Positions 18,587-34,861 of a stretch of DNA of 34,861 bases are shown one piece after another. The stretch is from an uncultured Steroidobacteraceae bacterium (GTDB lineage: Bacteria; Pseudomonadota; Gammaproteobacteria; Steroidobacterales; Steroidobacteraceae). The notes below the pieces were generated by a model. It had not been told where the DNA came from, made no database searches, and was given only the letters and a program-made list of their open reading frames with translations. The stretch lies in the NCBI GenBank assembly GCA_964597495.1, contig CAZQYC010000039.1:1-34861 (forward strand), written 5' to 3'. The position numbers and the translations under genes were made by a program. Numbering within the stretch: the stretch's first letter is position 1; each line of letters begins with the position of its first letter.

Positions 18587-18885
18587 CGCTTTGCGCTCGG
18601 ATCGCCGATGCGACCGAGCGCGCCTGATAAAAAATCAATCTCCAATGCCTGCTGGCCGATCTTCGCATGAAGTTCTTTGATGTCCGGCTGTAAGGCTTTC
18701 GCACCTTCACCGCCAAACGCTTCCGCTGCTCCTTCCAGCAGTTGCGTCTTCCACTGCGTCACTTGCGTTGGATGGACATCAAAGCGTTCGGCAATCTCAA
18801 TCACTGTCTGTTGCCCTTTGATCGCTTCCAGGGCCACTTTGGCTTTGAACGTCGCTGAATGGTTACGTCTCGATCTCTTACTCAT
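18583..18885 (-). CDS. IS3-family transposase OrfA (HTH)
   Basis: MSKRSRRNHSATFKAKVALEAIKGQQTVIEIAERFDVHPTQVTQWK is typical of IS3 OrfA. Confidence 0.8.
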   Translation of the reverse strand: MSKRSRRNHSATFKAKVALEAIKGQQTVIEIAERFDVHPTQVTQWKTQLLEGAAEAFGGEGAKALQPDIKELHAKIGQQALEIDFLSGALGRIGDPSAKR

Positions 18886-20127: not shown

Positions 20128-20273
20128 CCAACTCAAATTGAGTATGCTGTAATTGTGCCGTGAATAGGCTGCTCTCGAAGTGGAAAGCACCACAAGTAGC
20201 TGATTTATAAAGATCATAGTGCCCAAGTCGTCCTTCGAACAAGAGTGGAGTTCGAATCTCTTCGGCGCGGCCA
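20125..20273 (+). repeat. Copy A of a ~150-bp imperfect direct repeat. It ends in a tRNA-like T-arm (GGAGTTCGAATCTCT) plus an acceptor 3' strand and CCA, and it lies upstream of jetA.
   Basis: About 80% identical to copy B at 28800-28955, including the conserved core CTGATTTATAAAGATC. No complementary 5' acceptor strand was found, so it is not an intact tRNA. Confidence 0.6.
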
Positions 20274-20563
20274 ATTTCTCAAATGGAGTTCTGGATCGAT
20301 AGCTCAATGCACACACGTAGCATGTACATGCCAAAATAATGTACATCAGTAAGTATTAAATCCGTGTATCTCACTAGCTCAACCATCCTCTGTTCGCGTG
20401 CCTCGTTCAGTGGTTCGCATAAACAGGAGCAAGGATGCTAGAGAAGCAGTCAAGTATCGGAGAGAATCAATGATTGTTAGCCGGTTTTCCAACTATAAGA
20501 TTTCAGACCTACTTTATCGAGCAACCTAGTTGGTTACCTGCGAACGCATAGCTGAACCTAAGC

Positions 20564-22114
20564 ATGGATCACACAAGAATCCAACCCAACGTCGTTGACT
20601 CTGCGGATTTGCTCCGCCATATCACGGCAGACAAAGCGCCGCTCTACCGTAGCATCATGGATGTATTCGCGGCGGCTAAGCGGCAATACCGGCTGCAACT
20701 TCGGCCCGATGAAGTGGCTAGCGAAGCCACCTGGCCAGGGGACACACCCCGCATTGAAGAGATCAATGCCATGCTCACGCAGCTGTCGCAATGGGGCAAC
20801 CTGGAGTCACAGCCAGACACAACACGTGTTTCGACACTCAGCGATTTCTATCGAGCGAGATATCTGTATCGGTTGTCCCATGGCGGTGAAGCGGTCGAAG
20901 CCGGCCTCGCCGTGCTATTGCAGACGTTGCGTCGTCGCGCCGAACTGCAGACCGTTGCGCTCGAGGACATCGCTGGCCGCTTGCTTGCGCTCAAGCAACT
21001 CATCGAAGCCGATACCGATGGCAAGGGGCCCGATGTAGCAAAGTCGCACGAAACTCTGCGCGACCTCGTACGCGTATTTGAGGACCTCGCCGAAAACGCG
21101 CAATCCTTCATGGCCAGTGTTGCTCGCAGCCTGGAACTCCAGCAAGCGGACGCGAACACAATCGTCAACTACAAGCGCCGCCTGATCGACTATCTGGAGC
21201 GATTCATCGGCGACCTGGTCCGCCGATCCGACAGCATCGCTCGATTGATCCAGTATCTGACGAGCTATGTCGATGGAATTTTTTTGCAGATCGCGGAGCG
21301 CGAAGCCAGGGATGCTGCGCCCGGCGATGCGAGCGATCAGCAGGATCAGAAGATCGAACGATGGAGTGTTTGGACAGAACGTTGGAAAGGGCTGCGCGGG
21401 TGGTTTCTTTCCACTGGTGCAGAGCCGCCTCAAGCGGAGCTGCTGAGAGCGCGGGCCCGAGCAGCAATTCCGCTGCTGCTTGGCGCGATAGCGACGTTGA
21501 ACGAGCGTCGCAGCGGTCGCAGCGATCGCTCGGCGGATTTCCGCGTTCTGGCGCAGTGGTTCGCCGCCTGTGGCACCGATGGAGAGGCGCATCGTATGGC
21601 GCGTGCTGCGTTCGCACTCCAACCAGCTCGGCATTTCTCGCTCAATCCGCATGCAGATGGCGATCTTCCCGCCAGCACACCGTGGGCTGAAGCACCGCCG
21701 CTGCAAATAAATCCTCGACTACGCGAGTATGGTGAGGCAGCACCTCGTGGTCCGTTACCACGCGTCAGGGATAGGAGCGCGGAACGTGAATTGATGGCGC
21801 AGCAATTAGCTGAAGAGTCTCGGCAAGTGCAAGCCGCGCGGCAGCGCCTTGCAACGGGGCGTCCAGCTCGTTTGTCAGAAATCGGCGAACTCGACAAGCA
21901 TGCATTTCAACTCTTTCTGGGCTTGTTAGGCGAAGCGCTTTCGGACCAGCTCAATCCCGATCAGCCGGTGGAGCTGCAAACGGGTGACGGACTCCTTCGA
22001 GTACGTCTGGAACCCTTGCCCGCTGAGAGCCGAGCCACCATTGAAACGCCCGCCGGCACGTTCTCGGGAAGAGATCACCTGCTGACCATCACCGAGATCC
22101 ACGCAACCGAATGA
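20564..22114 (+). CDS. jetA: Wadjet JetA (MksF/kleisin-like, DUF3375-type)
   Basis: First gene of a four-gene operon with the size pattern 516/411/1387/421 aa and ATGA-overlapped junctions. Identified mainly by operon context with JetC and JetD. Confidence 0.55.
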   Translation: MDHTRIQPNVVDSADLLRHITADKAPLYRSIMDVFAAAKRQYRLQLRPDEVASEATWPGDTPRIEEINAMLTQLSQWGNLESQPDTTRVSTLSDFYRARYLYRLSHGGEAVEAGLAVLLQTLRRRAELQTVALEDIAGRLLALKQLIEADTDGKGPDVAKSHETLRDLVRVFEDLAENAQSFMASVARSLELQQADANTIVNYKRRLIDYLERFIGDLVRRSDSIARLIQYLTSYVDGIFLQIAEREARDAAPGDASDQQDQKIERWSVWTERWKGLRGWFLSTGAEPPQAELLRARARAAIPLLLGAIATLNERRSGRSDRSADFRVLAQWFAACGTDGEAHRMARAAFALQPARHFSLNPHADGDLPASTPWAEAPPLQINPRLREYGEAAPRGPLPRVRDRSAERELMAQQLAEESRQVQAARQRLATGRPARLSEIGELDKHAFQLFLGLLGEALSDQLNPDQPVELQTGDGLLRVRLEPLPAESRATIETPAGTFSGRDHLLTITEIHATE

Positions 22115-23346
22115 GCACCCGGCGATCACTGCAGGACAGCCGACGGATCGGCGATCTCCAAAAGTCCATGCAACAGGATGAATTCCGTAAGGCGTTGCGC
22201 GCATTGCTGATGACGCCGCTGATGTCACCCGAGCATGAAGATTTTGCAGCAGTGCGCCGGCAGGCCGAGCGGGTGCGCGATTGGTTCGCACGCGAGACCG
22301 GCTGGCCCTTATACATCGATCGTGAAGGTGCGCGCTTGTTCAAGCGACCCGCCGACTTGACGGACGATACCCGCGGCCTGCCTGAATACAATCGCTATCG
22401 CTATGTGCTGCTTTGCCTGTGCTGCGCCGTGCTTGAACGCGCCGATCCTCAGATCACGTTGAGGGTGCTCGGTGAACGTGTGATGCAGCTGGCGGCTGAT
22501 CCTACGCTCGCCGCATACGGATACGAATTTACTTTCGGGACGGCTGTCGAACGGCGTGCTCTCGTAGCTGTGTGCAAGACGCTGCTGGAACAAGGAGTGT
22601 TGCAGCGAGTGGCGGGTGACGAGGAAAATTTCGTGCACGAGAGCGGGTGGACGCAGTCGGACGCGCTCTACGATGTGCAACGGCGATTATTGGCTGGCAT
22701 GCTCGCCGCCATTCGCGGACCCTCGACTTGGCGCGCTGAAGAAGCACCGGCAGATTTCGAATCTCGCTTGCGATCTCTGATTGCCGAACATATCACAGAC
22801 AGCGATCAGGGTCGTCGCGACGCCCTGCGCCACTATCTTGCGCGCCGCCTATTGGACGATCCCGTACTTTATACCTCTTCACTGAGCGAGGAAGCTCAAG
22901 CGTACTTCATCAATCAGCGCGGTCCGATGGCAAGCCGGCTCAGCGATGCGCTAGGACTCATCGCCGAGCAGCGCGCCGAGGGTTTGGCGCTCACCGACGA
23001 AGCGGGGCAACTCACTGATGTGACTATGCCGGCCGAAGGGACGGAGGCGCACGCCACATTGCTCGTCGCGGAATTTCTCGCGCAACGTTTGCGCTCGAGT
23101 TCATTGCCTACGGTAACGACAATGGACGCGATTGCGGGTCACTTGCGTAACGCAAGCGCGCAGTACGGCAAATACTGGCGCAAATCCGCACGCGCACCCG
23201 GTGCGGAGAAAGAGCTTGCCGGTATCGCCGTCGACAGGCTTCGCAAGTTGCGACTGGTTGCGCTCGAACAGAATCGCATCACACCGTTGCCCGCCATTGC
23301 GCGCTTCGCGGTGGGACAAACCGATATCCGTGCCACAGATTCATGA
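22111..23346 (+). CDS. jetB: Wadjet JetB (MksE-like, DUF4194-type)
   Basis: Start ATG overlaps the jetA stop (ATGA at 22111-22114). Position and size fit JetB. Confidence 0.55.
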   Translation: MSTRRSLQDSRRIGDLQKSMQQDEFRKALRALLMTPLMSPEHEDFAAVRRQAERVRDWFARETGWPLYIDREGARLFKRPADLTDDTRGLPEYNRYRYVLLCLCCAVLERADPQITLRVLGERVMQLAADPTLAAYGYEFTFGTAVERRALVAVCKTLLEQGVLQRVAGDEENFVHESGWTQSDALYDVQRRLLAGMLAAIRGPSTWRAEEAPADFESRLRSLIAEHITDSDQGRRDALRHYLARRLLDDPVLYTSSLSEEAQAYFINQRGPMASRLSDALGLIAEQRAEGLALTDEAGQLTDVTMPAEGTEAHATLLVAEFLAQRLRSSSLPTVTTMDAIAGHLRNASAQYGKYWRKSARAPGAEKELAGIAVDRLRKLRLVALEQNRITPLPAIARFAVGQTDIRATDS

Positions 23347-26300
23347 GCGACACTCCGCCAACTCCACCACCTGCGTTGCCCCGACCGACCCGAGAACGGT
23401 GGCAGCCATTGCGGCTAGGCGTGGTCGAAGTCTTCCACTACGACAGCGAGGAGTTTTGGTTTCACGATGGTCATTTGCTGTTACGCGGCAACAACGGCAC
23501 TGGCAAGTCCAAGGTGCTTTCGCTAACGCTGCCATTTTTGTTCGACGCGCAGTTGCGTCCTTCGCGCATCGAGCCCGACGGCGATGCCAGCAAGCGAATG
23601 TCGTGGAACCTGCTGATGAACAGTTATCCGCGCCGCATGGGCTACACCTGGATTGAATTCGGTCGGCGTCTCAGCGACGGCTCGGTGCGTTATTTGACGC
23701 TGGGTGCTGGTCTTTTGGCGGTGGATGGCAAGCCGCAAGTCGATAGCTGGTACTTCATTCTTGACGGAGGCGACCACCAGACCGGTGTGCGCATCGGCCA
23801 GGATTTATGGCTCACCGGTACGCAGCGCGTCGTGCTCACACGCGACCGCCTGCGGGAACGCATCGAAGATCCGGGCTGGGGCCAGGTATTCGAGTTCAGC
23901 GGCCAGTACCGTCGGGCCGTCGATGAGCGGCTGTTCCATTTGGGCAGCAAACGTTACGACGCGCTTATGGATACGCTGATCCAGTTGCGACAACCGCAGC
24001 TATCGAAAAAGCCGGACGAGGCCGGTTTGTCTCAGGCTCTGAGCGACGCACTGCCGCCCATTCCATCCGAGCTACTGACGGATGTGGCCCAAGCGCTCAA
24101 CCAACTGGAGGAGGATCGCAATCGCTTAGAAGAGCTGCGGCAGCTGGAGCGCGCTATCCGGCAGTTCGAGAGCCGCTATCGAGTGTACGCTGGCATGTTG
24201 ACCCGCCGACAAGCTCGCGAGCTGCGTCAAGCGCAGACGGGTTTCGACAACGCCAGCGAGGAGCGCAACAAGGCGCAGACCGAACTCGAGAGAACGCAGC
24301 AAGCCGAACAGGCCGGCATCGCCGCTCACGAGCAGGCTCGGCAAACGCTGGCCGCTGCGCGTGAGCATCTGGAGACTCTGCAGAGCGATCCCGCCAATCA
24401 AGACGCAAATCGCCTGAATCAGGCGGAACGAGACGCGTTGGAGGCAAACATCGCCGTCGCGTCCGTGGCCAAGCAGTGCGAAGAAGCGCGCCAGAAACTC
24501 ACAAGAGAAGAAGAACGCAGCCGGAAAGCGGCCGAGCGTGCCGACAACGCACAAGCGGAACTTCTATCCGTTCGGAAGCAATGCTGGAATGAAGCAGAAG
24601 CGGCGAGGGCGCTTGGCTCCTTCGAGTCCAATCGGCTCGCTGCGGCGACACCGGATGAGCTCGCGACGCTAGCGCGATCGGAGCTTGCAGCGGCGGCGGA
24701 AGAACTGCGTCTGGCTGGCGCGAAACGGCGCCAGGACATCAGGCACTTGGAACAGCGCCATGCCGCGGCGGACAAGAAATTGTCGGCGCTTGAATCGCTG
24801 CAAGTGACGCAGCGCGAGCGCCAGGCAGAGCTGGAGGACGCGCTGAGAAAGCGCACTGCCGCGGATGGCAATGCAGAGCTGGCCGCGAGTAGCCTTATCG
24901 AGGCATGGGTCGCACACATCGGTGCGCTGGGCCAGCTGCGCCTGGATGAGGTAGCGGTAATGCCGCAGCTCACAGCGTGGACCGCTCGCCCTGAGGGATT
25001 GAATCCGGCCAATTCGGCCCTTGGCGAAGCCTATCGGCAGGTCTCGCTTGATCATGCACGACGCGAGTCGTTGCTCAACGCAGAACAAACAGCGCAGGAG
25101 CATCGCCGCGCCGAGTTAATCGCCGAACGCGATCGGCTCGTTGCTGGTCATGATGCATTTCCACCGGCGAGGCCGACACGCTTGCCTGGTATTCGCGAGA
25201 AACGAGACGGCGCCCCATTCTGGCAACTGGTGGATTTCCAATCTCATCTCGAGCCAGCCGAACGCGCTGGCATTGAGGCTGCGCTAGAGGCGTGTGGCTT
25301 GCTGGACGCATGGCTCGCTCCGCATGGCACGTTGATCGCTCCCGACGGCACCGCATTACTGGATAGTCACTGGATTCGGCGTCCCGTCACGGCTACGACG
25401 AACCTGGCGAGCGCGTTGTGCCCAGCCGTGCCGGACGGCATCAGCATCGACGTTGCATTGATCACTGCACTACTGAGCAGCGTCGCGTATGGAGACGATG
25501 ACATGATGTCGGCCGAATCTTGGATCTCGAGAGACGGACGTTATCGACTTGGAGCCCTAGCCGGCGCGTGGCAAAAGAGCGAAGCGGTCTATGTCGGCCA
25601 CTCGGCTCGCGAGAAGGCGCGTAAGCGCCGCCTTGATGAGATTTCTCTACTAATCGAGGAGCTGAACGTCGCTGCCGCTGATATCGAGCGGCGCTTTGCC
25701 GAGCTGCACGCGGACCGCGAGCGCAGCAAGCAGGAGCTTGACGCTGCACCGTCTGATGTAACGCTTCGCGAAACAGTTCTCACAGCCGCAAGCGCCGGAC
25801 AGGAAGTCGCGAGGGCCTACCAGCGCTTCGAGCAAATCGAGACTCAATGCCGCGTTGCCGAGGATGAGCTGCAGGCGGCACGGGAAACAGTGCAGAAGGA
25901 TGCTGCAGATTTGCAACTCCCAAGCGAACCGTCGGCGCTGATATCGGTCAGCGATGCGGTCGATCGATTCAATGCCAGTTACCAGCATTTGCTATCAGCC
26001 GCACGTGAATGGCGCACCGCTCACCCCGAATATGTGGCGCAGCACGAGCGCGAAATCGAAGCTCGCCATGGGCTCTCGCAATTCGAGAGCACTAGAGCTG
26101 AGACAGTTGAGCGCGCGGAAAGAGCCCGCGTGCGCTTCGAAACGTTGCGCAACGCCGTCGGTCAGCAAGTGGAGCTGCTTCGGCAACAGCTGACAATTGC
26201 GCGGACGAAAGTGGATACAGCCGAGGATCACCTCGACAAGCAACAACTGTCCTTGAATGAGGCCCGCGAGCAACGTGTCATTGCTCATGCTCGGGCCGAA

Positions 26301-27506
26301 ACAGCCGAAGCAGCACTGACCGAGCGTGTCGAGGTTCGTGGCAGGGCGGTCGATAAATTGCAGCGCTTCACCGCCAGTGGCCTGCTTTCAGCCGCATTGC
26401 CTCAAATGGAGTTGCCGGATTTGGCAACGACCTGGACCATCGATCCAGCACTGACGCTGGCCCGCCGTACCGAGCAGGCGCTTACGCACATCAACGACGA
26501 CGAGGCTCATTGGAATCGCGTGCAACATCAGATCGGCGAAGATCTGACTGAGCTGCTTCGTTCGCTGAGCGCTCTGGGACATCACGCCAGCTCCGAGCCC
26601 AACGATTGGGGCTTTACTGTTCATATCCAGTATCAAAACCGCTCAGAACGTCCAGACACGTTAGCCAACGCTCTGGCGTACGATATCGCACAGCGGAGCG
26701 AGCTTCTTTCTGCCAAGGAGCGAGAGGTATTGGAGAACCACCTGCAGGCCGAGATAGCGGCTGAGATTCAGCGCTTGATGCGAGCTGCCGATCAGCAGGT
26801 CGGCACGATCAACGAGGAACTACATAAGCGCCCGACGACTACAGGTGTGCGCTATCGGTTGCTATGGCAGCCGCTATCTGCAGAGGACGGTGCTCCGGCG
26901 GGATTGGAGATCGCACGGGAGCGGTTGCTTCACACCAGCTCCGATCTGTGGTCGACAGAAGACCGCAGAGTGGTCGGTACGATGTTGCAACAACAGATCG
27001 TAGCGGAGCGTGCCCGAGCCGATGCGGAAACCAGTGGCACCGGCGGTAGTCTGCTCGATCAACTAGCCCGTGCTTTGGACTATCGTCGCTGGCACCGCTT
27101 TCGCGTGCAGCGACATCAGGATGGTCAATGGCGCAAACTGTCGGGACCAGCTTCCAGCGGTGAACGCGCGCTGGGCCTGACCGTGCCATTGTTCGCCGCC
27201 ATCGCGAGTTTCTACGGCCGAGGCGGCAGCCCACTCGCGCCAAGACTAATGCTGCTCGATGAAGCCTTCGCAGGCATCGACGATAAGGCCCGCGCCCACT
27301 GCATGGGGTTGATTCGTGAATTCGACCTTGACTTCGTGATCACGAGCGAACGCGAGTGGGCCTGCTATGCCGAGCTGCCTGGTGTATCAATCTGCCAATT
27401 GCAGCGCCGCGAGGGTGTGGACGCGGTGTTCGTTTCCCGCTGGACATGGGACGGGCGCGCCAAGCGACCAGAGCGAGATCCCGATCGAAGATTTCCGCCC
27501 ACATGA
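23343..27506 (+). CDS. jetC: Wadjet JetC (SMC-like ABC ATPase, MksB homologue)
   Basis: N-terminal LLLRGNNGTGKSKVLSLTLPFLFDAQLRP is Walker A with the conserved JetC N-terminus. It has very long Ala/Glu/Arg-rich coiled-coil arms, a C-terminal signature-like SGPASSGERALGLTV, and Walker B LMLLDEAF. Confidence 0.75.
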   Translation: MSDTPPTPPPALPRPTRERWQPLRLGVVEVFHYDSEEFWFHDGHLLLRGNNGTGKSKVLSLTLPFLFDAQLRPSRIEPDGDASKRMSWNLLMNSYPRRMGYTWIEFGRRLSDGSVRYLTLGAGLLAVDGKPQVDSWYFILDGGDHQTGVRIGQDLWLTGTQRVVLTRDRLRERIEDPGWGQVFEFSGQYRRAVDERLFHLGSKRYDALMDTLIQLRQPQLSKKPDEAGLSQALSDALPPIPSELLTDVAQALNQLEEDRNRLEELRQLERAIRQFESRYRVYAGMLTRRQARELRQAQTGFDNASEERNKAQTELERTQQAEQAGIAAHEQARQTLAAAREHLETLQSDPANQDANRLNQAERDALEANIAVASVAKQCEEARQKLTREEERSRKAAERADNAQAELLSVRKQCWNEAEAARALGSFESNRLAAATPDELATLARSELAAAAEELRLAGAKRRQDIRHLEQRHAAADKKLSALESLQVTQRERQAELEDALRKRTAADGNAELAASSLIEAWVAHIGALGQLRLDEVAVMPQLTAWTARPEGLNPANSALGEAYRQVSLDHARRESLLNAEQTAQEHRRAELIAERDRLVAGHDAFPPARPTRLPGIREKRDGAPFWQLVDFQSHLEPAERAGIEAALEACGLLDAWLAPHGTLIAPDGTALLDSHWIRRPVTATTNLASALCPAVPDGISIDVALITALLSSVAYGDDDMMSAESWISRDGRYRLGALAGAWQKSEAVYVGHSAREKARKRRLDEISLLIEELNVAAADIERRFAELHADRERSKQELDAAPSDVTLRETVLTAASAGQEVARAYQRFEQIETQCRVAEDELQAARETVQKDAADLQLPSEPSALISVSDAVDRFNASYQHLLSAAREWRTAHPEYVAQHEREIEARHGLSQFESTRAETVERAERARVRFETLRNAVGQQVELLRQQLTIARTKVDTAEDHLDKQQLSLNEAREQRVIAHARAETAEAALTERVEVRGRAVDKLQRFTASGLLSAALPQMELPDLATTWTIDPALTLARRTEQALTHINDDEAHWNRVQHQIGEDLTELLRSLSALGHHASSEPNDWGFTVHIQYQNRSERPDTLANALAYDIAQRSELLSAKEREVLENHLQAEIAAEIQRLMRAADQQVGTINEELHKRPTTTGVRYRLLWQPLSAEDGAPAGLEIARERLLHTSSDLWSTEDRRVVGTMLQQQIVAERARADAETSGTGGSLLDQLARALDYRRWHRFRVQRHQDGQWRKLSGPASSGERALGLTVPLFAAIASFYGRGGSPLAPRLMLLDEAFAGIDDKARAHCMGLIREFDLDFVITSEREWACYAELPGVSICQLQRREGVDAVFVSRWTWDGRAKRPERDPDRRFPPT

Positions 27507-28768
27507 CACGGGATTTACAGCAACCTGATGTTCGACTGGTGCGCCTCTTCGGCGGTAGTGATCTTGTACGGCTACGACGGCGACTAAGACGTCACTTCGA
27601 GCGACACGGCGGAGGCCTGAGCGGGTCGCTGCAGCTAAGTAATCTGATACCAATTGAGCAAGAAGTACTTGCTCAGTTGATGGGGCGCCCACCCCGTTCC
27701 GCGCGATCTATTCGTATACACCTTGATCAGCTGGACGCTTCACTGCGAGGTGCCGGAATCGCGGACTCGCTGCGCGCGGCATTGGAGATGTTGGATGGTC
27801 CTATCGAGGACCGTGCAGCTCTTCGGCAAGCTCGCCTGCTGCGATGGACGCAGGTGATCGATGCCGAGCGCTGGCATCCCATACTCCGTCTGTGGCTGCA
27901 AACGCCAACAACGGTCACGTCGCTCAAGCGCCTTGCTCGCGGTGACCCCTCCGCTGCTGAGCAATTACTTGAGCAAGCGAGTCGAGTGATGCGGCGACTT
28001 CCATCGGCGGGTATCACCAGAGCGCAGCTGGCTGCAGAAACGCTCGGCAATGCACATTCACTCGACAATGGATATCCGACATCAACGATTGTTCTCTCTG
28101 CACTGAGGCAGGAAAGCAGTCCAGACGATGCGCCTGCGACTGATGGACGGAACAGCGAGAGCGCGAAGGCTTCCGAGCGTGCTAGGGAAACCTGGGCCCG
28201 CGTAGGCGTACTTGTAAACGAGCTGGCGCGGCCCGCGCTGTGCTTGAATTTGCCAATGCCATTTCCAACGTTGATCGGTGGCTCATCGGGGGAACCACAA
28301 TATTTCTCACTGCGCTTTCTACTCCGCAAGAAACCTGTGTGGCAGTTTGATGGCATGCCGATTTACGTCTGCGAGAACCCCAACGTAATCGCGATTGCAG
28401 CGGATCAACTGGGCTCTCGCTGTGCGCCTCTGATCTGCACCGAAGGCATGCCTGCAGCCGCCCAGCGGGCATTGCTGACACAGTTGACTCGCGCCGGAGC
28501 CCGATTGCTCTACCACGGCGACTTTGACTGGCCAGGCGTACGCATAGCCAACTTTGTCATGCGCATTTGGCCCGCATTGCCTTGGCGCTTCACCACTGCT
28601 GATTACGAGGCGGCTGTTTCGCGCACAACACACAGCGTGCACGATTTGAGCGATATTCCTGTTAGCGCATCCTGGGATGATTCCTTGACGGAAGCGATGA
28701 AAATCCGTGGCTGCGCTATCGCTGAAGAAGCCGTTGTCTCTGAGTTGCTAAAAGACTTGGCACTCTAG
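27503..28768 (+). CDS. jetD: Wadjet JetD (MksG-like, Toprim/DUF2220-type nuclease subunit)
   Basis: Start ATG overlaps the jetC stop (ATGA at 27503-27506). The C-terminal Toprim-like acidic motifs are LICTEGMP and LLYHGDFDWPG. Confidence 0.65.
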   Translation: MTRDLQQPDVRLVRLFGGSDLVRLRRRLRRHFERHGGGLSGSLQLSNLIPIEQEVLAQLMGRPPRSARSIRIHLDQLDASLRGAGIADSLRAALEMLDGPIEDRAALRQARLLRWTQVIDAERWHPILRLWLQTPTTVTSLKRLARGDPSAAEQLLEQASRVMRRLPSAGITRAQLAAETLGNAHSLDNGYPTSTIVLSALRQESSPDDAPATDGRNSESAKASERARETWARVGVLVNELARPALCLNLPMPFPTLIGGSSGEPQYFSLRFLLRKKPVWQFDGMPIYVCENPNVIAIAADQLGSRCAPLICTEGMPAAAQRALLTQLTRAGARLLYHGDFDWPGVRIANFVMRIWPALPWRFTTADYEAAVSRTTHSVHDLSDIPVSASWDDSLTEAMKIRGCAIAEEAVVSELLKDLAL

Positions 28769-28799
28769 ACAGTAGTTATAGTAGTTAATGTCGTGATCT

Positions 28800-28955
28800 G
28801 TGCCGCGTTCAAATTGACTGTGACTAATTTGTGCCTTAGATAGGCTTTTTTAGGGGGTAGCAAGCGCCGCAAGTGACTGATTTATAAAGATCCGTAATAG
28901 CCAAATCGTCCTACGAACCATGAGGTCGGGAGTTCGAATCTCTCCGGGCGCGCCA
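28800..28955 (+). repeat. Copy B of the ~150-bp direct repeat, with a tRNA-like T-arm (GGGAGTTCGAATCTCTCC), acceptor 3' strand CGGGCGC, discriminator G and CCA. It lies immediately downstream of jetD.
   Basis: Aligned base-by-base to copy A. The T-stem is better preserved than in A. No matching 5' acceptor strand was found. Confidence 0.6.
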
Positions 28956-29237
28956 TTAAATCAACCAGTTAGCCCTAAGCAACCTACTGCTGATTGCCGG
29001 TTGTGACAGATTGAGCTGCTTCACCGGCTTACCTTGGTAACTGAACACGTGCGTCGGATGTCGTCCGAGTTGGGCACGAATGAGCTTCAAGGCTTCCTGC
29101 ATTGAGCGGAACAGGAATCGCCTTTCGAACCAGAGGGTCAGTGAAGCAAAGATCACCGCTCGTTTTATCCGCTCGCCAAAGTACTGAGCCCCACAGTTGC
29201 CTGCCGGGCTCAGGTTAGGTTGATGTTCATCGCGCGT

Positions 29238-30380
29238 TTAGGCTGGGACCTGAATTCGCACGACGTCCTTTAGCACGCCATCGAGGCCGCCGAAGACGGT
29301 TAATTTGTCGACCTTCTCCGTGACCTTTTCGAGCGTTTCGAGCTCCTTCAAACGAAGCAGCGTCGGGTTCTCGTCCATGAGTCGGGCCGTGTTGAGGAGC
29401 GAACGCGTTGCTGCGGTCTCTTCACGACGCTTGATTAGGTTTGCTTGCGCGACCTTTTCAGCTTCAACCACACGATTGAGAATTTCCTTCATCTCACCCG
29501 GTAGGATCACGTCCTTGATGCCCACGCTCGCCAACGCGATGCCGTGTTGCTCGATCTTGCCGCGCGCAGTCGTCTCAATCTCTCGATCGAGTGCGCCTTT
29601 CGCGCCGAGCATTTCATCGAGCGTGCGAGTACCGACCGCTTCGCGCAGCGCAAACTGCAGTTCCTTGTAGACGAACTCTACGAAGTTCTGTAGCTCTCCG
29701 CGCGCTTTGACTGCATCGACCACCCGCCAGAGAGCAGTGAGATTGACGCGCAGGCTAACCTTATCCTTGGTCAAGATGTCTTGGCCGGAGACCTCCATGG
29801 TTTGTACACGACGATCGACCAGCTCGGTCTTGAGCGTGCGCTGGAACCTCCAGAATGCATGCAGGCCCGGCTCGAGAATCTTCGTGAATTGACCGTCCAC
29901 GATCAGCATTGCCGCCGAGGTATCCGGCACCTCCACGGTAACGACGGCCTCGGCGATCTGCGATGCGAGTGGCGGTTTCGCCCGTGCAATTACACGCGCA
30001 ACTTCTGCCGGTACCTCAAGCTCCTTGGCAGTGTCGATCTTAACGACGCGCAGATCGATCGGTCCCTTCCAGTAGAGCTGACGCTTACCGGGCGCAAGCA
30101 CACCCGCAAGCTTGTCATTCTTGTAGACGAGGCCGACCTCGCGATCCGTGAGTTCGACGATGTCGAAATACTTCTCCATCGTGGCACGTGCCTCCTTCAC
30201 GAGAAAGTCGACGCGCGCATGCTCGAACTCGGGCGCAGTAAGGTCGTAAACTTGCAGTTCTACGCGGACGAATGGCGCGACGATCCAGCGCGTGCCCGGC
30301 TCGAGCACTCCGGTGAACTGCTTATTCCTCCAGACGAGCGCACGCTCGTGCTGGGCGATCGTCACTCGCTTAATGGTCAT
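29238..30380 (-). CDS. SPFH/band-7 (stomatin/prohibitin/HflK-like) domain protein
   Basis: ILTKDKVSLRVNLTALWRVVD and the following Ala/Glu-rich coiled-coil are typical of the band-7 family. The N-terminus carries three repeats of a xGxLxPGxxxxxPF-like strand motif. Confidence 0.65.
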   Translation of the reverse strand: MTIKRVTIAQHERALVWRNKQFTGVLEPGTRWIVAPFVRVELQVYDLTAPEFEHARVDFLVKEARATMEKYFDIVELTDREVGLVYKNDKLAGVLAPGKRQLYWKGPIDLRVVKIDTAKELEVPAEVARVIARAKPPLASQIAEAVVTVEVPDTSAAMLIVDGQFTKILEPGLHAFWRFQRTLKTELVDRRVQTMEVSGQDILTKDKVSLRVNLTALWRVVDAVKARGELQNFVEFVYKELQFALREAVGTRTLDEMLGAKGALDREIETTARGKIEQHGIALASVGIKDVILPGEMKEILNRVVEAEKVAQANLIKRREETAATRSLLNTARLMDENPTLLRLKELETLEKVTEKVDKLTVFGGLDGVLKDVVRIQVPA

Positions 30381-30728
30381 GATGACGTTCTCCTTATGTG
30401 GGTCGGGAGTGATTGAAAATTTGCATCACGCGCTCCCATCCCGTATTCGCGCGATACATTCAAGAAAAAAGTCCGAAGCACCCCGCGAATGTCGGGCGGG
30501 CATCGCGGTCGGCGCGGCAGGCGCGTAGAGCAAGTGACACTGGTGTCGTGTGCGATCATCCTTAATGCACGTCCTTTCCCAGTCTCGTTGCAGAACGGCT
30601 ATGCGCGCGTCGAGCATCGATGCACAGAGCGCGATACTCGCTGCTGTTTGCGCGAGCACTTGCATGCAAGCGAAGAACAGCTGGAGCGCTTCGGATGCGG
30701 AACTTGCGTTCCGCGGTGGAGATGCCGC

Positions 30729-30775
30729 TGGCATCGACAGGGGGAGTCGAACCCCGAGCTTTTTAGGCTCTACCC
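30729..30775 (-). pseudogene. Orphan tRNA 3' fragment (T-arm GGGGTTCGACTCCCC plus acceptor 3' strand plus CCA) with a D-arm remnant and no anticodon arm
   Basis: The reverse complement reads ...GGGTAGAGCCTAAAAAGCTCGGGGTTCGACTCCCCCTGTCGATGCCA. No complementary 5' acceptor strand was found. Confidence 0.35.
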
Positions 30776-30852
30776 TGGTCGCATTGGAGGGAATCGAACC
30801 CTCGACCTAGCAGTTGTTGGCTGCCTGCTCTATCCCACTGAGCTACATTGCG
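30776..30852 (-). tRNA. tRNA-like gene with the non-canonical anticodon loop CCAACAA (apparent anticodon AAC, C33), 77 nt including CCA
   Basis: Good cloverleaf: D-arm GCTCAGTGGGATAGAGC, T-arm GAGGGTTCGATTCCCTC, and an acceptor with 6 of 7 pairs. A34 and C33 are unusual, so it may be a pseudo-tRNA or an unusual tRNA. Confidence 0.4.
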
Positions 30853-31054
30853 TGGTGATTGAGGCACGACTCGCGCGGTACGCACAGCGACAGAGTCGCA
30901 GCGCGCCAGCGTGGCTTTGGAACCACGGCCGCTGACACGAAATCGCAAACCTCGATCTCGGTACCGATCGGCGCTCGTGCAATATGGACGAGCGCCGATC
31001 AGAATTCATAATCAAATTTGTACGCGGTGGGCGGAGCCTCTTCTCCGCCCACGT

Positions 31055-31627
31055 TCATCCATTTGCATGCAATCGCGAAGTCTTCGGCACGCCGAGAAGC
31101 AAGAACTCCATTTGATCGGCGAGAATTTTTCGATTCGCAAGAATGAAGACTTCATATCGATTCGGCACATACGGCACGTAGTGCAGCTTCATGCCGGCGG
31201 CTTCCGGCGTGCGGTCTGCCTTACCGTTATTGCATGCCTTGCAAGCCGCGACGAGATTCATCCACGAATCCGCGCCGCCCTTCGAGCGCGGTATCACATG
31301 TTCCATATCGAGTTCCTCGAATCGAAATCGCTGCGCGCAGTACGCGCAAATATATCGATCTCGAGCAAGCAGAATTTCCTTGGTGAGCGTCGGCACGTGA
31401 TCGAAGTGCCGGACGATGAAGTCCTTGCCCTTGATCGCGATGATCGAGCTTGCGCGGATGCACGACTGCAGGCCCGACGAACGCTGCGTGCCGCCGCGAA
31501 GCGTGAACTCGTGCGTACCCGCGGCCCACGCGATCATGTCGGTCGCGTAGTAGTGCGCAGCAGTGCGAACGTTAATCCACCGGTGCGGAGCGCCGGCGAC
31601 GTCGAGCGCGAGAATAGGCGGACTCAT
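31055..31627 (-). CDS. HNH endonuclease (His-Me finger), embedded in the tRNA array
   Basis: CAYCAQRF...EHVIPRSKGG...NLVAACKACNNGK is an HNH motif with a CxxC...CxxC zinc site. RBS GGAGAAG. Located 45 nt downstream of tRNA-Met on the same strand. Followed by a 10-bp-stem hairpin (31027-31052) plus a U-rich tract, and a 13-bp-stem hairpin (30966-31000). Confidence 0.8.
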   Translation of the reverse strand: MSPPILALDVAGAPHRWINVRTAAHYYATDMIAWAAGTHEFTLRGGTQRSSGLQSCIRASSIIAIKGKDFIVRHFDHVPTLTKEILLARDRYICAYCAQRFRFEELDMEHVIPRSKGGADSWMNLVAACKACNNGKADRTPEAAGMKLHYVPYVPNRYEVFILANRKILADQMEFLLLGVPKTSRLHANG

Positions 31628-31671
31628 CGAACTTCTCCTCTAGGTTGATCAACAGCGCTTGCTGCTGGTGG

Positions 31672-31748
31672 GTGGTCGTGCAGGATGGATTTGAACCATC
31701 GATAACCGGCTTATGAGGCCGGCGCGTTAGGCCGCTTCGCCACTGCAC
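31672..31748 (-). tRNA. tRNA-Met/CAT (elongator or Ile-lysidine type)
   Basis: Anticodon arm CCGGC-CTCATAA-GCCGG, T-arm GATGGTTCAAATCCATC, acceptor CGTGCAG/CTGCACG, discriminator A and CCA encoded. The 1-72 pair is formed, so it is not initiator-like. Confidence 0.8.
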
Positions 31749-31878
31749 GCATTCAAAGCGGAGGATCGGACTCCATGTCACGACCACCGCGTGCCGAACG
31801 AAAAGCGCGGTTTTCATTCGGCACCGACCACGATGCGAAGACGCATCGTGGCGAGCGTACATCCATGTACGCGGATTT

Positions 31879-31955
31879 TTGGTGGCCGCTGCTGGACTTG
31901 AACCAGCAGCCTCTCGATTATCGGTCGAGCGCTCTTGCCAAGTGAGCTAAGCGGC
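31879..31955 (-). tRNA. tRNA-Ile(GAT)
   Basis: Perfect acceptor GGCCGCT/AGCGGCC. Anticodon arm CTCGA-CCGATAA-TCGAG. T-arm GCTGGTTCAAGTCCAGC. CCA encoded. Confidence 0.85.
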
Positions 31956-32044
31956 CAAACGGTTAGTTGCGTGCAAGAACGTACACACGCCACGATGCGT
32001 CATCGCATCGTGGGCGGTGTCAAAAAAACACGCTTCTTGTTTGA

Positions 32045-32081
32045 CAAGCGGTCGTCGTGACACGGAGTCCGATCGACCGCT
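32045..32081 (-). other. Conserved-loop stem-loop motif, copy 1: 9-bp perfect stem AAGCGGTCG/CGACCGCTT around the loop TCGTGACACGGAGTCCGAT. It sits just 3' of the tRNA-Glu-like gene.
   Basis: Copy 2 at 32862-32894 has the same 19-nt loop with 1 substitution but a different, still complementary stem (compensatory changes). Confidence 0.55.
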
Positions 32082-32086
32082 TGAAT

Positions 32087-32162
32087 GTGGCGTTCCTGAG
32101 GGGATTCGAACTCCGGTTATCTCCGTGAGAAGAAGACGTCCTTTCCAACTAGACGATGAGAG
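32087..32162 (-). pseudogene. tRNA-Glu(CTC)-like pseudogene (acceptor stem does not pair)
   Basis: Glu-like D-arm TCGTCTAGTTGGAAAGGAC, anticodon arm TCTTC-TTCTCAC-GGAGA, and a T-arm with one mismatch. The 5' strand GCTCTCA cannot pair with the 3' strand CAGGAAC. Confidence 0.45.
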
Positions 32163-32172
32163 CAAGAAGCGA

Positions 32173-32259
32173 GTGGTGGAGGGTGCAGGATTCGAACCTG
32201 CGGAGATCGAGTCTCTCCCGGATTTAAGTCGAGTGCGTCAGATCACTCGTCCAACCCTC
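32173..32259 (-). tRNA. Class II tRNA-Leu(TAA)-like, 87 nt, with a weak D-arm and an A31-C39 mismatch. Possibly degenerate.
   Basis: Perfect acceptor GGAGGGT/ACCCTCC, T-arm GCAGGTTCGAATCCTGC, anticodon loop CTTAAAT, variable-arm hairpin GGAGA-GACTCGA-TCTCC. Confidence 0.5.
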
Positions 32260-32505
32260 CAGTAATCTAGATCTTTATGGCGGCGGGTGAAGGATGGCAC
32301 TTTATATGACAGTGCCGATGACACGTCCTTGTTACCGCGCCCGGCCAGCACATCCGTGTGCTGGCGTTCGCGCGGTTCAAATGCACGTTAAGTGCATTTG
32401 AAAATGCATCCGCGCTCACCCATCTGTTTTCGAAACAGCGCCACTTGGCCTCGATGGGAACCGACCATGGAAAGAAATTTGATCGCGCGGTGCGATCAAA
32501 CTGAA

Positions 32506-32582
32506 TTGGTGCGGCGTGCAGGATTTGAACCCGCGACCTCTCGGTTCGAAGCCGAGAACTCTGATCCACTGAGCTAATGCCG
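32506..32582 (-). tRNA. tRNA-Arg(TCG)
   Basis: Anticodon arm CTCGG-CTTCGAA-CCGAG, T-arm GCGGGTTCAAATCCTGC, acceptor with one mismatch. CCA encoded. Confidence 0.7.
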
Positions 32583-32604
32583 CGTGTTGTGCTCAAGCGA
32601 TGAA

Positions 32605-32682
32605 GTGGCGCGATGTGAAGGAGTTGAACCTTCGACCTCCGGCTTCGTAAACCGGCGCTCTAATCCAGCTGAGCTAACATCG
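32605..32682 (-). tRNA. tRNA-Arg(ACG)
   Basis: Perfect cloverleaf. Anticodon arm CCGGT-TTACGAA-GCCGG, T-arm GAAGGTTCAACTCCTTC. CCA encoded. Confidence 0.85.
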
Positions 32683-32687
32683 CATGA

Positions 32688-32762
32688 CTGGTGCACGCAG
32701 GAGGGCTCGAACCTCCGCCCCTTGCTTTGTAAGAGCGACGCTCGGCCGCTGAGCTATACGTG
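32688..32762 (-). tRNA. tRNA-Val(TAC)
   Basis: Anticodon loop CTTACAA, with one C-A mismatch in the anticodon stem. T-arm GGAGGTTCGAGCCCTCC. The acceptor has a G-U pair. It lies 5 nt from tRNA-Arg(ACG). Confidence 0.75.
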
Positions 32763-32861
32763 CATTGTGGATCACATCTGAACAAGACCCATGGATGGGT
32801 CTCGCCTGCGCTGTCTTCCGTGCAGGCGGCGATGAGCGAAAGTCACGTCTTTTGATCATCG

Positions 32862-32894
32862 CGCGGTTGTCGTGACAGGGAGTCCGATCAACTG
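32862..32894 (-). other. Conserved-loop stem-loop motif, copy 2: stem GCGGTTG/CAACTGC around the loop TCGTGACAGGGAGTCCGAT. It sits just 3' of tRNA-Asp.
   Basis: See copy 1. In both copies the motif ends ~6-8 nt before the encoded CCA (plus strand) of the upstream tRNA. Confidence 0.55.
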
Positions 32895-32901
32895 CATCAA
32901 T

Positions 32902-32977
32902 ATGGCGCCACGGATGGGGTTCGAACCCACGACGTCTCGCTAGACAGGCGAGCACTCTGGCCTCTGAGTTACCGCGG
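32902..32977 (-). tRNA. tRNA-Asp(GTC)
   Basis: Anticodon arm CTCGC-CTGTCTA-GCGAG, T-arm GTGGGTTCGAACCCCAT, discriminator G and CCA encoded. Confidence 0.85.
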
Positions 32978-33140
32978 CAAAATTCTTGTTGGATCACGCG
33001 TCAGGATCGCGCCTTGTCGTCCATGACCGGCGCGCAGTTGCGCCAGCTTTCGCTGTCCAAAATCGTTCCTACGATTTTGTCGAACCTAAATTCTTGCAGT
33101 CAAAGTGCGATGTCCTGCCAGTTAGACGGCGCGTGAACGA

Positions 33141-33215
33141 ATGGTGGGCGCGGAGGGGATCGAACCCTCGCCGTCCGATTAAAAGCCGGATGCTCTAACC
33201 CTTGAGCTACACGCC
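33141..33215 (-). tRNA. tRNA-Lys(TTT)
   Basis: Anticodon arm TCCGG-CTTTTAA-TCGGA, T-arm GAGGGTTCGATCCCCTC, acceptor GGGCGTG/CGCGCCC. CCA encoded. Confidence 0.85.
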
Positions 33216-33231
33216 CTCAACGAATGAAGAA

Positions 33232-33316
33232 TTGGTGCGCCTCGTCGGATTCGAACCGACATGTCGAAAGACACTGCGTCTTGAGCGCAGCGCGGCTGCC
33301 AATTTCGCCAGAGGCG
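33232..33316 (-). tRNA. tRNA-Leu(CAA), class II, 85 nt
   Basis: Anticodon arm CTGCG-CTCAAGA-CGCAG, long variable-arm hairpin TGTC-TTTCG-GACA, T-arm GTCGGTTCGAATCCGAC, perfect acceptor GCGCCTC/GAGGCGC. Confidence 0.85.
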
Positions 33317-33340
33317 CACAGTAGTAACGAAATGGTTCTT

Positions 33341-33549
33341 GGTGCGGGCGGCAGGAGTCGAACCTGCAATGGACGGAACTCCGATCATTACTCGGAGACA
33401 GCTTCGGCTTGGAAACGCGCTTCCCTAGCGACCCACTGAAGTAGCCGTTCGGTGCATCCGCAACCGTGGGCCTTGGCTGATTGCCCGTTTAGCCTTTCGG
33501 CTTCCCAGTTTCATCGTTTTTGGGCGCGGTTACCGTTTCGCCACACCCG
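33341..33549 (-). ncRNA. Unclassified ~209-nt element with tRNA-like termini: 5' acceptor plus D-arm (GCGGGTG-TG-GCG...CGC) and 3' T-arm plus acceptor plus CCA (GCAGGTTCGACTCCTGC-CGCCCGC-A-CCA), separated by ~135 nt
   Basis: The 3' module is a clean T-arm/acceptor. The only complementary 5' strand (GCGGGTG) lies ~200 nt upstream. The element is too long for a tRNA, and no tmRNA-like tag ORF was found. Confidence 0.3.
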
Positions 33550-33643
33550 CACAGTTCAAGAAATGACGTTGACACTACAGTTGGCTGCTTCGCATCATGT
33601 TTAATCTCGTTTGTTGGATTTCAAATAAATCCAACAAACGAGA

Positions 33644-33730
33644 TTGGTCCGTTCCCCCGGATTTGAACCGGGATGACATTGAAGTCACTGCGGTCTGAGC
33701 GCAGCGCGTCTGCCAATTCCGCCAGGAACG
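33644..33730 (-). tRNA. tRNA-Leu(CAG), class II, 87 nt, C1-G72
   Basis: Anticodon arm CTGCG-CTCAGAC-CGCAG, variable hairpin TGAC-TTCAA-GTCA, T-arm CCCGGTTCAAATCCGGG, perfect acceptor CCGTTCC/GGAACGG. Its 3' end abuts a 19-bp perfect hairpin (33602-33643). Confidence 0.8.
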
Positions 33731-33744
33731 GATCAAGAAAAAAA

Positions 33745-33821
33745 ATGGCACACCGGGAGGGACTCGAACCCCCAACTTGCCGTTTTGGAGACAGCTACTC
33801 TGGCCAATTGAGTTACCGGTG
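33745..33821 (-). tRNA. tRNA-Trp(CCA)
   Basis: Anticodon arm GCTGT-CTCCAAA-ACGGC, T-arm GGGGGTTCGAGTCCCTC, G1-U72 wobble. CCA encoded. Confidence 0.8.
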
Positions 33822-34029
33822 CAGATTGAGAGTCGGGCGCTTCCACGCGCCGTTAAAAAAATTGGTACCGACGGGTGAGTTCGGATGACTCTTCGAAGAC
33901 ACTTAACGTGTTTTCGAACCGAGCGAACGCAAATACATGGACATATTGGCCGGGCGCGATAACAGGGATGTGGATGTTGCGACAGCCTTGGCTGGCGTGT
34001 CTGCCTGTTTCACCACGTCGGCATTTCGA

Positions 34030-34103
34030 TTGGGGCCCTCAGTCGGAATTGAACCGACAACCTGCTGCTTACAAGGCAAGCTCTGCCAGTTGAGCTACAA
34101 GGG
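34030..34103 (-). tRNA. tRNA-Thr(TGT)-like, 74 nt, with a 4-bp anticodon stem and no nt 26
   Basis: Perfect T-arm GTCGGTTCAATTCCGAC, D-arm GCTCAACTGGCAGAGC, best anticodon loop CTTGTAA. The anticodon-arm geometry is unusual. Confidence 0.5.
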
Positions 34104-34115
34104 CATGGAAAAATG

Positions 34116-34204
34116 TTGGTGGGTAACCAGGGAGTCGAACCCCGTGTGTCCATTTAGGACGCCTGATTTACAGTCAAGTGCAGTCGCCAGTGCTGCTCGT
34201 TACC
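34116..34204 (-). tRNA. tRNA-Tyr(GTA), class II, 89 nt
   Basis: Acceptor GGGTAAC/GTTACCC, D-arm GCAG-CACTGGCGA-CTGC, anticodon arm CTTGA-CTGTAAA-TCAGG, variable hairpin GTCC-TAAAT-GGAC, T-arm CGGGGTTCGACTCCCTG. Confidence 0.85.
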
Positions 34205-34213
34205 CGAAGTAAA

Positions 34214-34313
34214 GTGGCGCGGACGAAGGGGTTCGAACCCTTGGCCTCGACGTTGGCAACGTCGCGTTCCGACCGAAGGAAGTGGCGCGTCCATACCATC
34301 TGGAATACATCCG
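34214..34313 (-). tRNA. Aberrant 100-nt tRNA-Gly(GCC)-like gene, with a canonical 3' two-thirds and a ~24-nt insertion/degeneration in the D-arm region. Possible pseudogene.
   Basis: Anticodon arm CGACG-TTGCCAA-CGTCG, T-arm AAGGGTTCGAACCCCTT, 3' acceptor CGTCCGC-G-CCA. The only pairing 5' strand (GCGGATG, G-U at position 6) lies 100 nt upstream. It is followed by a degenerate D-arm and an extra TTCC-TTCGGTC-GGAA hairpin. Confidence 0.5.
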
Positions 34314-34376
34314 CAATTAAGCAAGGTGCCTGTCTGTTCGACGTTCTTGCGAGTCGCGCGAAACATGCATCGGAAT

Positions 34377-34452
34377 ATGGAGCGGAGGACGGGGCTCGAA
34401 CCCGTGACATCGAGTTTGGAAGACTCGCGCTCTACCCACTGAGCTACATCCG
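34377..34452 (-). tRNA. tRNA-Gly(TCC), first gene of the array
   Basis: Anticodon arm CGAGT-CTTCCAA-ACTCG, D-arm GCTCAGTGGGTAGAGC, T-arm ACGGGTTCGAGCCCCGT, acceptor with one mismatch. CCA encoded. Confidence 0.8.
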
Positions 34453-34459
34453 CAAAATT

Positions 34460-34500
34460 TTGAGTGAATAAAACCCTCACGCTTTCACGTGCTTCAAAAA
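34460..34500 (-). promoter_or_regulatory. Candidate sigma-70-type promoter for the tRNA array: -35 TTGAAG and an AT-rich -10 (TTTTAT/TATTCA) 18-21 nt downstream
   Basis: Read on the minus strand, immediately upstream of the tRNA-Gly(TCC) 5' end. Sequence inspection only. Confidence 0.25.
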
Positions 34501-34861
34501 ATTCTTACTAGCTCGGGACTCTCACCCTCAACATCGCCTACGACACACATCGCGTGTTGTTCTGAACACGGAAGTGCGAATGCGGCGGAGCGCATGGACG
34601 CGCAGAAGCCGCAAGCGAAGACGGCAGTTAAGTGACGTCGGCGCGTGTGTGCGACACAAGGGTGAGAGCCCTTGATCTATTTCAAGTTGTTAAACAGCGT
34701 CCTGTCCGAACGTGCGGAGCAGGGGACCGTGCGCGCGAACGCACGAATCCGTTCGAGGGCTTAACCTCGCGGACTGGACACTTTGGGGTGGTTTTTGCCG
34801 ACTCTGAGTTGATTCTCAGGTGGCTGGCTCCCTTTAGGTGCCCCGTCCGGCTTATGCCTTC

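Follow-up and report, generated by a model that had tools for sequence, protein, structure and literature searches.

The window, i.e., the whole analyzed stretch of 34,861 nucleotides, which comprises an entire contig from an uncultured Steroidobacteraceae bacterium, carries a type II Wadjet operon that is flanked by two direct repeats, designated copy 1 and copy 2. Each copy consists of an upstream part of approximately 110 nt and a tRNA-like 3' end. A remnant of a tyrosine integrase and a slipin/SPFH gene were located to the right of copy 2. The coordinates of these features are summarized in Table 1.

Table 1. Positions of the two repeats, their parts, the Wadjet operon, and the right-hand neighbors in the window.
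Feature	Position	Strand	Basis or detail
Copy 1, predicted P arm with decayed tRNA-Arg 3' fragment	20121-20273	+	alignment to copy 2, blastn
Copy 1, arm-type hexamers	TGTGAC 20123-20128; degenerate TATGCT ~20143-20148; TGTGCC 20154-20159	+	
Copy 1, IHF-like site	20193-20213	-	direct reading; A/T tract, then AATCAG-CTAC-TTG, fits WATCARNNNNTTR
Copy 1, tRNA-Arg(TCG) fragment, anticodon loop to CCA	20233-20273	+	direct reading, alignment
Type II Wadjet operon jetA2-jetB2-jetC2-jetD2	20564-28768	+	Pfam, PADLOC JetA2-JetD2
jetA	20564-22114	+	
jetB	22111-23346	+	
jetC	23343-27506	+	
jetD	~27520-28768	+	
Copy 2, predicted P arm with intact-looking tRNA-Arg(ACG) 3' fragment	28796-28955	+	
Copy 2, arm-type hexamers	TGTGCC 28799-28804; TGTGAC 28819-28824; TGTGCC 28830-28835	+	
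Copy 2, IHF-like site	28870-28890	-	AATCAG-TCAC-TTG; CAAGTGACTGATT then TATAAAGA on + strand
Copy 2, tRNA-Arg(ACG) 3' part	28911-28955	+	direct reading, blastn to tRNA-Arg genes
Tyrosine integrase remnant, ~40 codons	28971-29093	-	tblastn with L182 tRNA-Arg island integrase
Slipin/SPFH gene, first conserved chromosomal gene	29238-30380	-	synteny

In the MAFFT alignment, the mean column identity of copies 1 and 2 was 80%, and the blastn comparison of the two copies within the window gave 73.6% identity over 144 nt (E = 8e-16). The first-pass annotation had described a pair at 20125-20273 and 28800-28955 with approximately 80% identity and a shared CCA end, placed exactly at the borders of the Wadjet operon. 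The pair is real, although its limits were placed slightly wider. Moreover, the likeness of the two copies breaks off exactly after the terminal CCA in the MAFFT alignment, and a complete type II operon does lie between them. The annotation had also proposed a genome-wide search for further copies, which was run on the contig. The 16-mer CTGATTTATAAAGATC occurred exactly two times, even when three mismatches were allowed (0.11 occurrences expected), and no third copy of the repeat was found anywhere in the contig by blastn and pattern search.

The end of copy 1 is separated from the start of jetA by 290 nt, and the jetD stop is followed by the start of copy 2 after 28 nt. Between these two junctions, jetABCD are the sole content, and genes for integration or transfer are absent. 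The Pfam domains of the operon are DUF2397, DUF2398, SbcC_Walker_B, and DUF3323 with DUF2399. The GC content of the Wadjet block was approximately 0.60, compared with approximately 0.50 for the left flank. A plasmid origin was considered and rejected, as a megablast of 25 kb against PLSDB returned only weak matches to jetC. In the 290-nt gap, the palindrome ATGTACAT occurs twice at 20318-20345, with the two occurrences 12 nt apart; the closest Wadjet operons show no conservation of this gap on their upstream side, and the palindromes could be an operator or promoter element. The closest Wadjet operon, in locus L156 (JetA 92% identical), directly abuts a P arm and a tRNA-Arg(TCG) 3' half at L156 9928-10182. 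This P arm is of a different repeat type, namely, GCGTGAC/GCGGGAC, like that of the tRNA-Pro subfamily. No junction was found upstream of jetA in L156, and the next closest operon, in L155 (90%), showed no junction.

The tRNA-like end of each copy comprises its last 41-45 nt, which extend from the anticodon loop to the CCA of a tRNA-Arg. In the case of copy 2, the anticodon loop CTACGAA (28911-28917, anticodon ACG) is followed by the stem CCATG, the variable loop AGGTC, the T arm GGGAG-TTCGAAT-CTCTC, the acceptor strand CGGGCGC, the discriminator G, and CCA. When copy 2 was compared with phage and plasmid records by blastn, the matches were confined to its last 45-50 nt or so, and all the annotated ones were tRNA-Arg genes. 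The tRNA part of copy 2 shares 40 of 45 positions with the equivalent stretch of the intact tRNA-Arg(ACG) gene in locus L182, and the T-stem difference, as read from the sequences, is compensatory. In the case of copy 1, the anticodon loop is CTTCGAA (20233-20239, anticodon TCG), and the overlaps of the two copies in this loop thus differ by one base. In addition, 4 nt of the anticodon-stem/variable region are deleted from copy 1, its T stem contains a mismatch, and its acceptor strand is shifted. Because of this deletion and the T-stem mismatch, it was regarded as decayed and non-functional.

The module had been described in the first-pass annotation as a T arm plus acceptor plus CCA that lacks a 5' acceptor strand and does not form an intact tRNA. 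All the named parts are present, but the description was too short, as the module starts at the anticodon loop and belongs specifically to tRNA-Arg. The statement on the 5' acceptor strand was correct for both copies on inspection by eye. A hidden 5' strand was sought in the same manner upstream and, for a permuted arrangement, downstream; the candidates were only partial pairings of 5-7 bp that were inconsistent between the copies, and they were rejected in view of the blast and family results. ARAGORN, which covers permuted tmRNA, found no intact tRNA or tmRNA overlapping either copy, in agreement with the view that these are not intact tRNAs. Rfam at the gathering score reported nothing at either copy, and in E-value mode the sole match at copy 2 was a 9.1-bit T-arm piece of the tmRNA model, for which the gathering score is 47. 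Consequently, none of the tRNA, tmRNA, and two-piece tmRNA models that had been suggested for checking was supported by ARAGORN and Rfam.

The upstream 110 nt or so of each copy has the layout of a lambda-type attachment-site arm. The hexamer TGTGMC is found two to three times per arm, in columns that are conserved across the seven arms of an alignment. The last two hexamers of copy 2 are in 11-nt phase, and the columns of the copy 1 hexamers hold TGTGCC/TGTGAC in six related arms. Arm repeats located further upstream are specific to a subfamily. The consensus of IHF is WATCARNNNNTTR with an A/T-rich flank. Both window copies match this consensus exactly when read on the minus strand, and the IHF-like motif ends 19 nt (copy 1) and 20 nt (copy 2) before the anticodon loop.

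The seven-sequence alignment also showed block-by-block colinearity between the window arms and those of four betaproteobacterial or metagenomic loci (L004, L026, L173, and L188). The blocks common to these arms are TTGTGCC, ATTGACTGTGMC, ATTGTGCC, and GGCAAGC-N3-GCAAGTGA-TGATTTATAAAGA. The tRNA partner of the arm in these four loci is a tRNA-Lys(CTT) fragment. From this difference in partners, the arm was concluded to be a module of a mobile element and not of the tRNA. Judging from their sequence, the 110-nt arms are predicted to be P arms that would be bound by an integrase and by IHF.

The same layout was sought in other genomes with the pattern GATTTATAAAGA-N(28-58)-GTTCGAATC, i.e., the shared core and the T loop, which was scanned in collections of viral contigs, one genome per species, and metagenomes. 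A tRNA 3' end with CCA terminated 43 of the 50 distinct matches, and the tRNA fragments were of Arg-ACG, Arg-TCG, Arg-CCG, Lys, Pro, and Ser. The spacer from the motif to the anticodon loop was 19-22 nt in 30 of these 43, with a mode of 20. Positions that were left free in the pattern were nevertheless conserved, namely, Y at -8 (88%), A at -7 (93%), A at -6 (79%), and T at -1 (88%). The family consensus is YAANNNNTTGATW with an A/T tract after it, which corresponds to the IHF consensus and its A/T-rich flank in reverse complement, and the YAANNNNYTGATW motif and the 19-22-nt spacer are conserved across the family. A literature search on the core motif returned only irrelevant papers.

As a separate matter, AAGNNNYTGATTTATAAAGA alone was rejected as a marker of the family because it is very common in viral contigs, usually away from tRNA halves. 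Among the matches listed, more than 120 were from IMG/VR loci L035-L154, and they were mostly not beside tRNA fragments. Many of the listed AAGNNNYTGATTTATAAAGA sites were located just upstream of strong -35/-10 promoters or formed inverted pairs. This sequence resembles a generic site of the IHF type, one that abounds in the intergenic regions of phages.

Several loci of the family retain the intact tRNA gene. L018, L025, and L029 each have an intact cognate tRNA gene in the same orientation, 1.4-4.6 kb upstream, and the arm is followed by an exact repeat of the last 45-49 nt of this gene; the tRNA is tRNA-Arg-CCG in L025 and L029 and tRNA-Pro-TGG in L018. In L182 (tRNA-Arg-ACG), L184 and L190 (tRNA-Pro), and L193 (tRNA-Ser), the cognate tRNA lies 5-10 kb upstream, and the same 45-nt tRNA repeat was read from the sequences of L182. 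Taken together, an intact cognate tRNA is present upstream in seven loci at 1.4-10 kb, and the repeat was exact where the sequences were compared. A PF00589 tyrosine integrase is encoded beside the intact tRNA, on the opposite strand, in L182 (E = 6e-33) and L190 (E = 5e-24). Moreover, the attP order is uninterrupted in L002/L192 and L194, i.e., P arm, core, tRNA half, and integrase on the opposite strand. The proteins encoded beside the junctions of 18 loci were compared by all-against-all BLAST, and no conserved protein was found except for unrelated transporter genes, which fits junctions that represent the far end of islands.

In the case of L018, a 1.9-kb islet (4576-6571, minus strand) lies between the intact tRNA-Pro(TGG) and an exact 45-nt repeat with a P arm and an IHF-like motif. 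It contains a single gene, which encodes a 575-aa defense reverse transcriptase of the DRT6/DRT4 type, and no integrase. L025, L029, L184, and L193 are likewise without an integrase. Integrase-less islets bounded by this att family thus recur and may merit a separate look.

On the right side of copy 2, the integrase remnant was recovered by tblastn with the L182 integrase as one short alignment, in which 24 of 41 residues were identical (E = 2e-8). Clear homology covers approximately 29010-29093, corresponding to residues 230-260 or so of the 341-aa integrase. A small HMM built from five integrase sequences (E = 0.0045) and the integrase remnant of L026 both match it weakly. It begins 16-55 nt to the right of the copy 2 CCA, and its orientation is as in L182. 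Searches of the remnant against Pfam, a plasmid collection (tblastn), and a large protein database gave no match. A lone TGTGAC at 29002-29007, also to the right of copy 2, may be a P' arm site. An HMM search detected no second integrase remnant elsewhere in the window, and neither a remnant nor a P' arm site was found after copy 1. A complete integrase was found nowhere in the contig. ARAGORN detected no intact tRNA-Arg on the plus strand of the 34.9-kb contig, which ends 20 kb to the left of copy 1.

Synteny with Steroidobacter and its relatives spans 29240-34861 and stops approximately 280 nt to the right of copy 2. As the slipin gene is the first conserved chromosomal gene, it was taken as the right limit of the variable island region. 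Everything to the left of 29240 is variable and holds an IS3 element, a HipA-like gene, and Wadjet. Neither an empty site nor a tRNA-Arg was present beside slipin in the relatives.

Both flanks showed other features of their own. All 16 tRNAs that ARAGORN found in the window are on the minus strand at 30776-34453. This array has repeated spacers (direct repeat D3 and inverted repeats I1-I4) and includes an HNH endonuclease ORF at 31055-31627. The order of slipin, HNH, and tRNA array is syntenic in Steroidobacter-like genomes, with differing tRNA content, and ARAGORN assigned odd anticodon loops to two of the array tRNAs, at 34031-34104 and 34215-34314. In the variable region, an isolated copy of part of the tRNA-array HNH gene, 70-84% identical, was located at 14615-14761; it forms repeat D5 with 31057-31123, and further matches are the HNH genes in L160 and L162. 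Both the HipA-like kinase (15653-17041), which carries an HTH domain at its N terminus, and the IS3-family transposase (17759-18885, minus strand) are to the left of copy 1. Additionally, a 300-nt internal direct repeat (87% identical) was noted at 10853-11683 within an ORF of 1211 aa of the CBM96/PQQ-propeller type.

Considering these results, the two copies are very probably the junctions of a decayed tandem array of tRNA-Arg islands, the middle one of which lacks an integrase and retains Wadjet as its cargo. The first-pass annotation had raised att-site remnants of tRNA- or tmRNA-targeted integration as one option. The tRNA part of this option was upheld and narrowed to tRNA-Arg by blastn and the family loci, while the tmRNA part was set aside by the ARAGORN and Rfam results. 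Each element would be a recombination junction of an island whose tyrosine integrase targets the tRNA-Arg anticodon loop. The upstream 110 nt or so would represent the P arm of the island, with the hexamers TGTGCC/TGTGAC for the integrase and, ending 19-20 nt ahead of the crossover, a site for bending by IHF. The downstream 41-45 nt would be the tRNA 3' portion displaced or brought in at each integration.

We infer that related islands entered one tRNA-Arg gene successively and that this gene, still intact, would lie beyond the left end of the contig. The internal junctions of such an array would each read P arm, core, and tRNA 3' half, and each newcomer would displace the previous 3' half, so that the oldest island would be furthest to the right. 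Accounting for the parts in this order, copy 2 would combine the P arm of the Wadjet island with the tRNA half and the integrase stub of an older island, which would be almost wholly deleted and would abut slipin. In copy 1, a newer island to the left would contribute the P arm, and the Wadjet island the tRNA half. After copy 1, the integrase and the P' arm of the Wadjet island itself would have been deleted, while Wadjet and the P arm would have been kept. The newer island or islands on the left would include the IS3 element, the HipA-like gene, and unknown ORFs, and the Wadjet block would now be an att-bounded, integrase-less cassette like the CIMEs (cis-mobilizable elements) that decay and accretion have produced in other bacteria (PMC5704250). 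The copies would lie at the Wadjet borders because, of the cargo of one island in the tandem array, Wadjet alone would remain. The P arm and tRNA-Arg half beside the closest Wadjet operon (L156) and the GC difference between the Wadjet block and the left flank are consistent with this arrangement. The left end of the array is unseen because the contig holds neither a plus-strand tRNA-Arg nor a complete integrase. Counting against the tandem arrangement are the relatives without a tRNA-Arg beside slipin and the lack of an integrase remnant or P' site after copy 1. Furthermore, the anticodon difference, TCG versus ACG, can be reconciled with a single gene of origin only if the decayed copy 1 subsequently acquired a point mutation.

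A Wadjet cassette that is still active, with junctions used in trans by an integrase from elsewhere in the genome or from an incoming island, would be compatible with copy 2, in which the full hexamer set and the IHF-like site are kept and the core and the tRNA half look intact. Integrase-less islets with the same kind of site recur (L018 with its single DRT gene, L025, L029, L184, and L193), and CIME-ICE tandem transfer has been observed in other systems (PMC5704250). However, the middle hexamer of copy 1 is degenerate, in addition to its 4-nt deletion and changed anticodon-loop overlap, and the overlaps of the two junctions, CTTCGAA and CTACGAA, differ. Moreover, copy 1 is followed by no P' arm, and the contig contains no cognate integrase. 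Continued mobility was therefore judged improbable on account of the decay of copy 1. A broader proposal is that integrase-less, single-defense cassettes at these att junctions form a recurrent class, shuffled in trans by a modular integrase family with a fixed arm and IHF site and switching Arg/Lys/Pro/Ser cores. Wadjet in this window and the lone DRT-type reverse transcriptase in L018 would be examples, and the proposal is best regarded as a doubtful but conceivable one.

The T arm, the acceptor 3' strand, and the encoded CCA of each copy, together with the 9-bit partial T-arm match to the Rfam tmRNA model at copy 2, could also be read as signs of small-RNA genes with a tRNA-like 3' end, an option listed in the first-pass annotation. 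Such an RNA might supply the acceptor half of a two-piece tmRNA, mimic a tRNA as a processing signal within the Wadjet transcript, or resemble a Y RNA. Nevertheless, ARAGORN and Rfam found no tRNA or tmRNA at the copies, and folding was no better than that of shuffled sequences (z = -0.3, +1.1, -0.6, and +1.5). Promoter and terminator signals were searched for, and none was found. The alignment of copies for compensatory changes that had been suggested was carried out with the seven sequences; the T arm does covary, but no other helix does, and the consensus energy was -10.6 kcal/mol over 160 nt. The upstream arm, in addition, is joined to different tRNA fragments and, in other loci, lies at the distal border of islands whose other end is an intact tRNA. 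The small-RNA option is thus unsupported and very improbable. A simple duplication of a segment, or a genome-specific repeat in dispersed copies, with a tRNA pseudogene in it and no relation to site-specific recombination, is even harder to credit. Only two copies are visible, and they are approximately 20-26% diverged, as such a repeat might be. However, the likeness ends precisely at the CCA, the integrase remnant adjoins copy 2, and the right junction is located at the synteny break. The genome-specific repeat of the first-pass annotation was moreover refuted by the layout itself, which is common to dozens of unrelated genomes and is combined there with different tRNA fragments.

The two repeats are accordingly an ordinary, well-known kind of feature, i.e., displaced tRNA-Arg fragments with att P arms, and the current understanding of integration is unchanged by these junctions. 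The favored explanation of a decayed tandem array would account for the arrival of Wadjet as cargo of a tRNA-Arg-integrating island, and the right border of a variable defense region is fixed in an uncultured Steroidobacteraceae-like genome. More generally, an encoded T arm with an acceptor strand and CCA but without a 5' strand should be read first as a displaced tDNA fragment. Arm repeats and an IHF site at a set distance, if present in the 100 nt upstream, can be used to diagnose such a fragment. The IHF-like motif approximately 20 nt before the anticodon loop and the arms that are colinear across tRNA targets could help in annotating island ends in metagenome fragments that lack an integrase.

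Similar junctions have been reported for integrated islands. The Islander article (PMC4383910) presents a catalog of the displaced tRNA-gene fragments (attR and tandem junctions) of tyrosine-integrase islands and prophages; Williams 2002 is cited there and in PMC10121019. In that work, a regenerated tDNA and a displaced fragment mark the island ends, many crossovers are centered on the anticodon, and tandem arrays occur (PMC4383910). The junctions in the window share the direct-orientation 3' tRNA fragment at an island end and the anticodon-loop crossover (class "A") with these islands. Tandem arrays at one tDNA and, at the homologous loci L182 and L190, an integrase beside the regenerated tRNA are further common points. 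In contrast to the Islander combination of tDNA, fragment, and integrase, the intact tRNA and a working integrase would lie outside the contig here, so that Islander would not call these islands, and the two fragments have diverged, one of them being decayed.

In the case of the lambda-type attP, the likeness comprises repeated hexamers partly in 11-nt phase and a WATCARNNNNTTR match with an A/T tract approximately 20 nt from the core. An integrase just beyond the P' side, as seen in L002/L192 and L194, also corresponds to this type. However, the arm sequence TGTGCC and the anticodon-loop core of the window are unrelated to those of lambda, and the sites described here are predicted ones. Neither Xis nor Fis sites were identified in the window arms.

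CIMEs and the tandem accretion of ICEs and IMEs have been documented (PMC5704250, which cites Pavlovic 2004 and Bellanger 2011 on these subjects). Like a CIME, the Wadjet block is att-bounded cargo without integration genes, and at the 3' end of a tRNA it is arrayed in tandem with related elements. The definition of a CIME requires attL and attR to be kept, whereas both borders here are P-arm-type junctions, one of which is degenerate. Moreover, the host of the window is a gammaproteobacterial MAG and not a streptococcus.

Finally, Wadjet on tRNA-integrated mobile elements has been documented (PMC10121019). As in the defense hotspots of that report, Wadjet would be the cargo of an element integrated at a tRNA gene, and the variable region around it also contains toxin-antitoxin-like and IS genes. 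Those hotspots are in E. coli and hold largely intact elements, whereas in the window the carrier has been cut down to the defense operon and its junctions.
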